Shown piece after piece: positions 49 to 696 of a stretch of 696 nucleotides of DNA. Made by a program: the position numbers and the translations under genes. The notes below the pieces were generated by a model. It did not search any database. It was not told the DNA's origin and saw only the letters and a program-made list of their open reading frames with translations. Each line of letters opens with the position of its first letter. The stretch's first letter is position 1. The stretch is from a phage: sequence record AF039878.1, one strand, 5' to 3'.

Positions 49-66
49 CCGAAAAATTTTTATAGT

Positions 67-79
67 GTGCAAATCCGAC
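67..79 (+). repeat. Copy C of 13-nt direct-repeat family (exact GTGCAAATCCGAC)
   Basis: Exact 13/13 match; preceded by tatagt, followed by the A/T linker aatgaattttc. Confidence 0.9.
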
Positions 80-92
80 AATGAATTTTCCC

Positions 93-111
93 AAAAACTC
101 CAGCAATCACG
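93..111 (+). repeat. Copy 1 of second repeat motif AAAAACTC-MR-GCAATCA-YG (aaaaactccagcaatcacg)
   Basis: 19-nt stretch matching 433-451 at 16/19 positions; lies immediately downstream of 13-nt copy C and its AATTTTC linker. Confidence 0.75.
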
Positions 112-122
112 AACTGCGTTCG
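110..122. other. Perfect hairpin: stem CGAAC / GTTCG, loop TGC
   Basis: Positions 110-114 cgaac are the reverse complement of 118-122 gttcg; 3-nt loop 115-117. Located at the 3' edge of second-motif copy 1. Confidence 0.6.
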
Positions 123-127
123 AATCC
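118..127 (+). promoter_or_regulatory. tRNA B-box-like decamer GTTCGAATCC (10/11 to the Pol III B box / T-loop consensus GGTTCGANTCC); not an intact tRNA
   Basis: Direct match of gttcgaatcc; the preceding base is c rather than g. No A box found upstream and the flanks do not form a T-arm stem, so at most a tRNA-derived remnant. Confidence 0.25.
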
Positions 128-147
128 TGTGGAATTAGCTAGAGTAT

Positions 148-160
148 GTGCAAATCCGAC
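148..160 (+). repeat. Copy D of 13-nt direct-repeat family (exact GTGCAAATCCGAC)
   Basis: Exact 13/13 match; preceded by atgt. Confidence 0.9.
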
Positions 161-172
161 ATGTGTTGAGAT

Positions 173-185
173 GTGCGNNNNGGAC
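173..185 (+). repeat. Probable copy E of 13-nt family (GTGCg-NNNN-gGAC)
   Basis: gtgcg at 173-177 and ggac at 182-185 align to motif positions 1-5 and 10-13 with the four Ns (178-181) over motif positions 6-9; one mismatch at motif position 10. Preceded by atgt like copies D and G. Starts exactly 25 nt after copy D. Confidence 0.5.
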
Positions 186-202
186 AAGATTNTTGTGACT
201 TC

Positions 203-353
203 GATGGGAGGGTGTGTGATTGTAGGGGTTTGAGGGGAAGATGAGAGAGCGAGAGAAATTTGGGAGGCTAGAAGGATAGGGGCGCAGGATTGGTGCGGAG
301 CACCTGATTTGCGGGGATTTTGGGGAAGAGTTGAGATAATTTGGGAAGATTTG
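203..353 (+). other. Purine/G-rich, C-poor low-complexity block with multiple G3-G4 runs
   Basis: By my count only 9 C in this ~150-nt stretch (positions 250, 268, 283, 285, 296, 301, 303, 304, 312). G-runs at 206-208, 210-212, 225-228, 234-237, 279-282, 313-316, 322-325, 343-345. Confidence 0.8.
243..256 (+). repeat. Short interrupted GA dinucleotide tract (gagagagcgagaga)
   Basis: Direct reading; (GA)3-G-C-(GA)3 microsatellite-like tract inside the purine-rich block. Confidence 0.7.
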
Positions 354-432
354 NNATANGTGCANGAAANAGTAAAATTTTATTAACTAAAGGGGGCAAA
401 ATAGCTTGACAAGTGAAAATTTCTGTGGCTCT

Positions 433-451
433 AAAAACTCAGGCAATCATG
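433..451 (+). repeat. Copy 2 of second repeat motif (aaaaactcaggcaatcatg)
   Basis: 16/19 identity to 93-111. The upstream context (gcaaaat..cttgac..aagtgaaaatttc at ~396-423) resembles a degenerate 13-nt core plus linker, suggesting the same composite unit as at 67-127. Confidence 0.7.
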
Positions 452-463
452 GGCCTTCGGCCC
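451..463. other. Perfect hairpin: stem GGGCC / GGCCC, loop TTC
   Basis: Positions 451-455 gggcc are the reverse complement of 459-463 ggccc; 3-nt loop 456-458. Located at the 3' edge of second-motif copy 2, the equivalent position (within 1 nt) to hairpin 110-122. Confidence 0.6.
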
Positions 464-501
464 GAAATAATGCTGCTATTTTCAGGAGAGTAAGANTTCC
501 T

Positions 502-514
502 AAAAACTTAGGCG
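502..514 (+). repeat. Partial third copy of second motif (aaaaacttaggcg)
   Basis: Shares aaaaact and the ggc core with the other two copies, but runs directly into 13-nt copy F without the downstream hairpin. Confidence 0.4.
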
Positions 515-565: not shown

Positions 566-620
566 AGTAATTTCTGGAAATGTGTTTTCAAAAAATGTCT
601 TCTACAAATAANCGCCTCCC

Positions 621-645
621 TAAAACCGCCCTGTATTAAACCGCC
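621..645 (+). repeat. Two copies of AAACCGCC phased 15 nt apart (623-630 and 638-645), with a related aNcgcc at 611-616
   Basis: Direct reading: taaaaccgcc...ttaaaccgcc; the + strand here is C-rich and G-poor, the opposite skew to 203-353. Confidence 0.6.
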
Positions 646-696
646 TAATGCCTGGANGTTCANNGANCATCCAAACTNCNCTACAATAATGTNGCN

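Follow-up and report, generated by a model that had tools for sequence, protein, structure and literature searches.

In phage lambda the terminase region is arranged as cosQ-cosN-cosB and carries R sites in both orientations, and in SPP1 the arrangement is pacL-pacC-pacR. At the concatemer junction of T7, Chung, Nardone and Hinkle are said to have described, in 1990, a hairpin intermediate at an inverted repeat near the terminal repeat. The present analysis concerns a stretch of phage T5 DNA of 696 nucleotides (sequence record AF039878.1), referred to here as the window, and a repeated unit within it. In this unit a hairpin with a stem of 5 bp and a loop of 3 nt comes after a motif of about 22 nucleotides, TTCC(C/T)AAAAACTCNNGCAATCA. 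Two such repeats noticed in the window belong to a family of cis-acting DNA elements in which a ~22-bp motif abuts a short G+C-rich palindrome whose pairing is conserved while its sequence is not. One member of the family stands exactly at the end of the packaged genome, and the units are therefore most likely DNA signals for genome-end formation rather than a small RNA.

By analogy, the T5 locus resembles the terminase regions of lambda and SPP1 in that a putative cut site is flanked by repeated short motifs in mixed orientation, with conservation in T5 highest at the cut. It differs from them in two respects. In lambda and SPP1 the sites are recognised as duplex DNA and covarying hairpins are absent, and T5 ends in direct terminal repeats of 10 kb instead of the cohesive ends or headful cuts of the cos and pac phages. 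T7, also a phage with direct terminal repeats, appears comparable in having a palindrome beside the repeat boundary which is implicated in repeat duplication and end formation. However, its palindrome and its repeat are unrelated to those of T5 in sequence and size, and its own RNA polymerase takes part in the process.

The window was compared with phage records by BLAST. Positions 11-683 matched T5 (AY543070, 9800-10471) with 94.5% identity, and 451 records of T5-like phages matched the window. The mismatches to AY543070 are mostly Ns of the window itself; with about 30 Ns, and with bases that disagree at several positions with both T5 genome records (647-667 is one example), the window is a low-quality or old T5 read and not a variant phage. 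In the T5 record, 'left terminal repeat' and 'injection stop signal (iss)' are annotated beneath the match. The window covers the right part of this non-coding signal, also termed Repeat Region 3, and the end of the left terminal repeat (TR). It lies in a gene-free gap of ~1.8 kb flanked by the convergent T5.017 (+) and T5.018 (-).

Repeats and palindromes of the T5 iss region have been described earlier (Heusterspreute 1987; Wang 2005, annotation of AY587007; Davison, bioRxiv 10.1101/866236). In Davison's comparison of 25 T5-like phages the region is Repeat Region 3, at 9194-10409, extending 270 bp past the terminal repeat, and most of its repeats are given no role. In the AY587007 annotation the 12-mer repeats are 'direct repeat D' (DRD), window 317-355 is 'direct repeat A copies 2 and 3', and palindromes C-J all lie left of the window. 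The iss/Repeat Region 3 is the same DNA as that analysed here: the TGCAAATCCGAC repeats of the window are the annotated DRD, and part of unit B2 (see below) overlaps the annotated direct repeat A (DRA) copy 2. The T5 region is already known, as are its DRD and DRA repeats and the general abundance of palindromes in it. The unit, its three hairpin copies, their covariation and the placement of copy A2 at the TR end are new with respect to the T5 annotations and literature examined.

The sequence-only reading had reported a motif at 93-109 (AAAAACTCCAGCAATCA) and at 433-449 (AAAAACTCAGGCAATCA), each copy followed by a small hairpin. Both copies are present as claimed and are identical at 15 of 17 positions; the hairpin directly follows the first copy and is separated from the second by one T. 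The two hairpins differ at three of five stem positions, with Watson-Crick pairing throughout, again in agreement with that reading. A third hairpin-bearing copy, B2, is inverted, and three degenerate copies (B1, A3 and B3) have no hairpin. The six copies are as follows.

A1, 88-122, plus strand: motif TTCCCAAAAACTCCAGCAATCA (88-109) and hairpin CGAAC-TGC-GTTCG (110-122), inside the terminal repeat; covariance-model match of 56.5 bits.
B1, 217-239, minus strand: degenerate inverted motif TGATTGTAGGGGTTTGAGGGGAA with no adjoining hairpin, found by repeat search.
B2, 292-327, minus strand: hairpin GGTGC-GGA-GCACC (292-304), then TGATTTGCGGGGATTTTGGGGAA (305-327), as read on the plus strand; covariance-model match of 55.8 bits.
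A2, 428-463, plus strand: motif (GCTC)TAAAAACTCAGGCAATCA, a T, and hairpin GGGCC-TTC-GGCCC (451-463); starts with the first bases outside the terminal repeat.
A3, 497-513, plus strand: partial motif TTCCTAAAAACTTAGGC that merges into a DRD repeat and lacks a hairpin; covariance-model match of 11 bits, E=0.41.
B3, 637-667, minus strand: inverted motif (TTCCTAGAAACTCCAGCAATAG on the T5 minus strand), with no hairpin; covariance-model match of 18.9 bits, E=3.4e-3.

The reverse complement of B2 reads TTCCCCAAAATCCCCGCAAATCA followed by the hairpin, the same unit as the motif and hairpin of A1, and in Epseptimavirus B2 resembles A1 still more closely (TCCCCAAAAACGCAGCAAA..). B1 has a mean majority-base frequency of 0.90 and falls below detection at E<=10 by the covariance model described below. 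B3 is found in only some T5-like phages, and the base calls of the window are poor at this position. A homologue set of 55 distinct stretches from IMG/VR, metagenomes and GenBank phages was aligned with the window, and in these T5-like sequences the DRD repeats and the units occur in unchanged order.

Perfect hairpins of this size (5-bp stem, 3-nt loop) number exactly three in the clean T5 equivalent of the window, at 110-122, 292-304 and 451-463, and each of them adjoins a motif copy. Dinucleotide-shuffled sequences contained 0.79 such hairpins on average, and three G+C-rich ones were found in none of 2000 shuffles. A covariance model was built solely from the A1 and B2 orthologues and the whole T5 genome was searched with filters off. 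A2 was recovered independently by this model (21.7 bits, E=6e-4). Apart from the units listed above, the only matches of note were the second copies of A1 and B2, from the right terminal repeat, and one weak match in coding sequence (E 0.08). No other hairpin-bearing copy was found in the 121.7-kb T5 genome by the covariance model, and a plain pattern search agrees. These searches indicate that the family is local, confined to ~600 bp around the right boundary of the TR, and not dispersed.

In T5 the left TR ends at 10219, equivalent to window 431, between ...TTTCTGTGGCTC and TAAAAACTCAGGC, and the A2 motif begins one base later. The same end, between ...CTGTGGCTC and TAAAAACTC, is given for eight independently annotated genomes. 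As at sites of the cos and pac type, A2 is found at a physical end of the virion DNA, the right end of the TR or genome falling at 431/432. The end and the adjoining block were located from the following sources.

TR end at 431/432 in the two T5 records, phiR2-01, EscoHU1, Elw and SIY1lw: record annotation.
TR end at 431/432 in Sw2 and Sepoy: PhageTerm.
TR end at 431/432 in six IMG/VR genomes: the contig stops there.
Conserved block at 365-431, up to the right end of the TR (...TTGACAAGTGAAAATTTCTGTGGCTC): mean majority-base frequency 0.95; conserved into Sugarlandvirus.

Conservation is highest at this junction, with mean majority-base frequencies of 0.95 for 365-431 and 0.98 for 432-485, compared with 0.75-0.90 elsewhere. 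Short hypothetical open reading frames (ORFs) have been annotated over the repeat end in phiR2-01, Sw2, Sepoy, TrudiGerster and IME260, in mutually inconsistent frames; the constraint on the block is thus not on a protein. Coding by the block was rejected, the ORFs of Sw2 and IME260 being in different frames and diverging outside the conserved DNA.

The claim that pairing is preserved through sequence change, indicative of selection on the hairpin, was then weighed with many more sequences and it holds, for the A1 and B2 orthologues and for A2 across genera. The stem of A1 occurs as CGAAC/GTTCG, (T)CGAAC/GTTCG(A), GATGC/GCATC, GTGC/GCAC, CGAG/CTCG and TCGTGC/GCACGA, and one A1 variant has an internal mismatch. 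Among 19 distinct A1 variants, 86% of the cells are paired compared with 43% or less when the partner is slid, and four of the five pairs have changed on both sides. For B2 the stems are GGTGC/GCACC, GGCGT/ACGCC and GGCG/CGCC, with loops of 3-5 nt, and two pairs have changed on both sides. The MAFFT alignment of B2 understates its pairing because variants with loops of 4-5 nt are mis-registered; when scanned sequence by sequence these variants do pair. In a gapless alignment of A1 (18 variants) with B2 (16 variants), 97.6% of the cells are paired (slid controls, 52% or less) and all five pairs are doubly changed. A shuffle control for covariation can be surpassed by kin sequences without structure, whereas slid-partner controls preserve relatedness. 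Non-Watson-Crick pairs are too scarce to tell the strand.

The A2 hairpin is invariant in 49 sequences. The adjoining 450:464 pair is T.G in 45 of them and C-G in the other 4. A scan of metagenomes yielded 13 further A2 loci with the same invariant hairpin, as expected since the search pattern contained the hairpin. A scan with TTYCTGTGGCTCTAAAAA for variants of the A2 hairpin added only Sugarland, along with four chance matches.

A second genus provides the comparison for A2. The Klebsiella phages IME260, Sugarland and Kpn13-P1 (Sugarlandvirus) retain TTGACA...CTGTGGCTCTAAAAA and have DRD arrays on both sides. In these phages CGGTG-ACA-CACCG replaces the (T)GGGCC-TTC-GGCCC of T5, a different hairpin in the same place, and 18-19 diverged bases separate it from the conserved CTGTGGCTC. 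The annotated repeat end of IME260 is the base of that hairpin, inside the unit.

Other pairings were considered and rejected. Over 24 nt, 87-110 and 216-239 are 75% complementary, and more so when G-T pairs are allowed. This long-range pairing shows no covariation; it was set aside because 216-239 is unchanged in phages in which the A1 motif is altered or absent. An outer 3-bp helix around the first hairpin (100-102/130-132), predicted by RNAfold, is ambiguous in register between lineages and too weak. A second hairpin, of A/T pairs, at 465-483 is broken in several phages.

The sequence-only reading had left two identities side by side, a small structured RNA or a structured regulatory or recombination element. 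The second part of this proposal is favoured, in the form of a DNA element, and the small RNA finds no support. No Rfam match was obtained in the window at E<=10, and over T5 9100-11000 the Rfam matches were at chance level only. No promoter and terminator framing a transcript were found in the window: its sole weak promoter-like site (351-378) is no more than shuffled sequences provide, and the number of terminator-like sites is zero. The unit is present in both orientations within 250 bp, an arrangement tolerated by a DNA site and not by a motif in one RNA, and the family is local. The conserved non-U positions of the motif, the link of the family to a DNA landmark and the prevalence of G-N-A loops, a type known from unusually stable DNA mini-hairpins (see below), also speak for DNA.

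The best reading of these results is that the units are cis-acting DNA signals for genome-end formation or packaging start, with a probability of roughly 45%. The palindromes are probably recognised as small single-strand hairpins or as an extruded structure and not as base sequence. Motif and palindrome together would then be the recognition site of an end-formation or packaging protein, the terminase or an associated nuclease being the candidates. In T5 the left end leaves the virion first. Since DNA packaged last is generally ejected first, packaging should begin with the right end, and the boundary at A2 (431/432) would on this model be both the start of concatemer packaging and the delimiter of the terminal repeat. 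The conserved block and A2 may be part of the end signal, and A1, B1, B2, B3 and perhaps the DRD repeats could represent binding sites, accessory or ancestral, to the left and right of the cut, comparable to the repeated sites of both orientations next to lambda cosN or SPP1 pacC. In the literature searched, no specific reports of a T5 packaging signal, or of a transcript at this region, were found.

Several observations weigh against a role of the units in end formation. A1 is missing from six sequences of viable T5-like phages, and not all copies are therefore essential. No related unit or shared motif was found at the left TR boundary. The stem of A2 is constant within the subfamily of T5, so that its structural support is one cross-genus comparison, and the annotated end in IME260 is shifted rightward by 20 nt from the T5-type position. 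In the chee24 and saus132 records the TR end is placed inside B1 (between ..GTGTGATTG and TATGGG, ~window 219-222). In Kenya-K18 PhageTerm places it 8 nt beyond the T-run of B2 (between ..TTTTTGGGGAAGA and GTTGAG, ~window 330). These three ends may be artefacts of method, or may be strand breaks or alternative ends beside paralogous units. The folding energies of the hairpins are ordinary, with z-scores of -0.3 to -1.9 relative to shuffles, and the evidence for the hairpins is thus comparative and not energetic. A 5-bp stem is too short for ready extrusion from duplex DNA. Finally, the literature examined gives the palindromes no role, with the region assigned to the injection stop.

A more specific form of the genome-end reading, which we regard as improbable, is that the unit is recognised by a nuclease which is strand-specific and depends on the hairpin. 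On the minus strand, cleavage by this enzyme at the 3' end of the A2 motif would define the right boundary of the TR and prime its duplication by strand displacement. The cut would be 5'-GGGCC GAA GGCCC A TGATTGCCTGAGTTTTTA/GAGCC-3' (the stroke marks the cut), made by a terminase acting in an unusual mode or by a separate T5 nickase, with the paralogous A1 and B2 as possible secondary nick sites. On the minus strand at A2 the order is hairpin, 19 nt of motif and TR end. A minus-strand nick priming duplication of the repeat would fit this geometry. If the end arose from such a nick, the hairpin would lie 5' of the nick on the cut strand, as at HUH relaxase/Rep nick sites. No HUH endonuclease is annotated in T5, and no protein search was made for one. 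Were this version true, the nuclease site would be the signal by which T5-type phages, with their long direct terminal repeats, form their ends.

Among the explanations other than genome-end formation, the one that survives best, although in our judgement it is unlikely, is that the hairpins act in RNA. They would be weak terminators or stabilisers of RNA ends that insulate the TR from convergent transcription, the A-type units halting leftward early transcripts of the minus strand and the B-type units halting rightward pre-early transcripts of the plus strand. On the hairpin-first strand of every unit, a U-rich sequence, UGAUU(U)GC...GUUUUU, comes after a G+C-rich hairpin, as in rho-independent terminators, and the units lie between the convergent gene blocks of T5.017 (+) and T5.018 (-). 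The Sw2 GenBank record labels the A2 hairpin (~window 445-464) as a minus-strand terminator, at 450:464 the change from T.G to C-G would be consistent with a wobble pair in plus-strand RNA, and a strong promoter-like site at T5 10851-10879 (-) is directed at the units. The units differ from rho-independent terminators, however, in that the U-run begins ~13 nt past the stem instead of 0-2 nt, and the stems, though G+C-rich with 3-5 G-C pairs, are only 5 bp long. A consensus scan calls no terminator at any unit, either in the window or in T5, and the units have no Rfam family. Moreover, the conserved non-U positions of the motif (GCAATCA, CTCC) are not needed by a U-tract, copies of the motif occur without hairpins, and termination leaves unexplained both the exact coincidence with the TR end and the conservation peak to its left. 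If the units were ordinary terminators, the result would be minor.

A role in the injection stop and second-step transfer of T5 DNA is doubtful. The units would here be structures or sites that stall the exit of DNA in the tail or connector, or on which A1/A2 act at the restart. The region is annotated as the injection stop signal, and the stop has been credited in the literature to its repeats, palindromes and secondary structure. The T5 tail is ~250 nm long. Counted rightward from the estimated shear point and nick, the units lie ~180-760 bp away, in DNA that would still be inside the tail during the pause. Against this role, the best-conserved unit, A2, lies outside the TR and outside the annotated iss feature (9140-10149), and unit A1 is dispensable in some phages.

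Signals for initiation on single-stranded DNA were also considered and appear very unlikely. The hairpins would in this case be priming sites or hairpin promoters like the G4 complementary-strand origin, RSF1010 ssiA or the N4 early promoters, with which they share an identical anatomy, a 5-bp stem and a 3-nt loop with conserved flanks. G-N-A loops are described as very stable DNA mini-hairpins at phage priming sites, RSF1010 ssiA and N4 promoters, with a stability not captured by nearest-neighbour folding models (PMC13037366). The T5 units are like these mini-hairpins in their short G+C-rich stems and in the predominance on one strand of a G-N-A loop closed by C-G. This loop was found on the hairpin-first strand in 43 of 47 sequences of A1, 48 of 49 of A2 and 39 of 55 of B2, and the minus strand of A2 contains CCGAAGG, the mini-hairpin sequence cited for RSF1010 ssiA. 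T5 has its own primase, and by annotation its polymerase displaces strands from nicks. However, the Sugarlandvirus counterpart has the loop ACA/TGT and not G-N-A, and the replication origins of T5 are near the centre of the genome. We know of no single-stranded stage at the T5 locus, which counts against such signals, nor of a primase site or virion RNA polymerase there. According to PMC7472727, host sigma-70 RNA polymerase transcribes all classes of T5 genes.

The least probable explanation is that the palindromes have no function and are by-products of a duplicated protein-binding motif, their symmetry arising by templated strand-switch mutation and not by selection: the stems are short and energetically ordinary, some motif copies have no hairpin, some phages have no A1 and a shuffle control can be surpassed by related sequences lacking structure, but a 5-bp stem and 3-nt loop are kept at the same distance from the motif at three loci and in two genera through at least 6, 3 and 2 variants, the slid-partner controls, which preserve relatedness, reach 52% at most against 97.6%, and A2 and the bases around it hardly vary.

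T5 is a classical model phage, and its injection pause and its exact 10-kb terminal repeats are still without a defined DNA signal. The non-coding region analysed here was formerly catalogued as repeats and palindromes without assigned roles. The covarying hairpin, its confinement to the repeat boundary and the position of A2, the best-conserved copy, at a genome end in two genera narrow the search for such a signal to a few dozen bases, which available T5 engineering methods can mutate. The units can also serve annotators as a marker of the TR boundary in T5-like genomes.

The DRD repeats surround the units and were located by repeat search and from the AY587007 annotation.

DRD copies (TGCAAATCCGAC), plus strand: at 11, 37, 68, 149, ~173, 519 and 554 (span 11-565).

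The DRD repeats (TGTGCAAATCCGACA) have the same orientation on both sides of the TR end; T5 (9754-10490) has six copies left of this end and three right of it. The arrangement in the Sugarlandvirus IME260 is alike, with five and six copies, respectively. The single-strand nick at 7.9% precedes the first DRD copy, which begins 2-5 nt further right. T5 12155 carries an additional copy and 78937/78952 a tandem pair. The TGCAAATCCGAC 14-mer occurs 5-7 times, with the spacing seen in the window, in T5-like viral contigs. A bacterial or archaeal origin of TGCAAATCCGAC repeat pairs was rejected, the 38 contig matches of this kind, mostly Prevotella metagenome-assembled genomes, being unrelated. The idea of an iteron origin found no plasmid match for the window, and a tRNA-like element, prompted by the GTTCGAATCC string, was rejected since ARAGORN finds none in the window. 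A kinetoplast minicircle, brought to mind by the GGGCGT with which the window opens, was dropped because the match to T5 accounts for the whole sequence.

The spacing of A1 to A2 (T5 9877 to 10216) and that of B2 to B3 (10115 to 10455) are both ~340 bp, and each pair encloses two DRD copies. The equal spacings suggest an ancient tandem duplication of a ~340-bp module, and when seen in this way the repeat boundary is the start of the second module.

A perfect TTGACA is present at window 406-411, 20 bp inside the repeat end, and is kept from T5 to Sugarlandvirus; it is without an acceptable -10 hexamer because the repeat end falls at the -10 position. The promoter-like site at T5 10851-10879 (-), outside the window, is near consensus (TTGACA-17-TATCAT with an upstream TG, 11 of 12 matches). 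It lies just downstream of T5.018, is directed left to the window and is followed by a hairpin, CCACAC-AGAAG-GTGTGG. No notable ORF and no Rfam match were found after this site, and an unannotated non-coding transcript is possible.

The plus strand of window 190-360 is strongly G-rich and C-poor, with runs that include GGGAGGGTGTGTG, GGGGTTTGAGGGG and GGGGATTTTGGGG; the inverted motif copies account for part of this bias. In several T5-like phages, including SHSML-45 and SE3, A1 and the preceding DRD copy (window 60-118) are replaced by AACCGCCCTCCCTATAACCGCCCT, a copy of the CCGCC repeats found at window 611-646.

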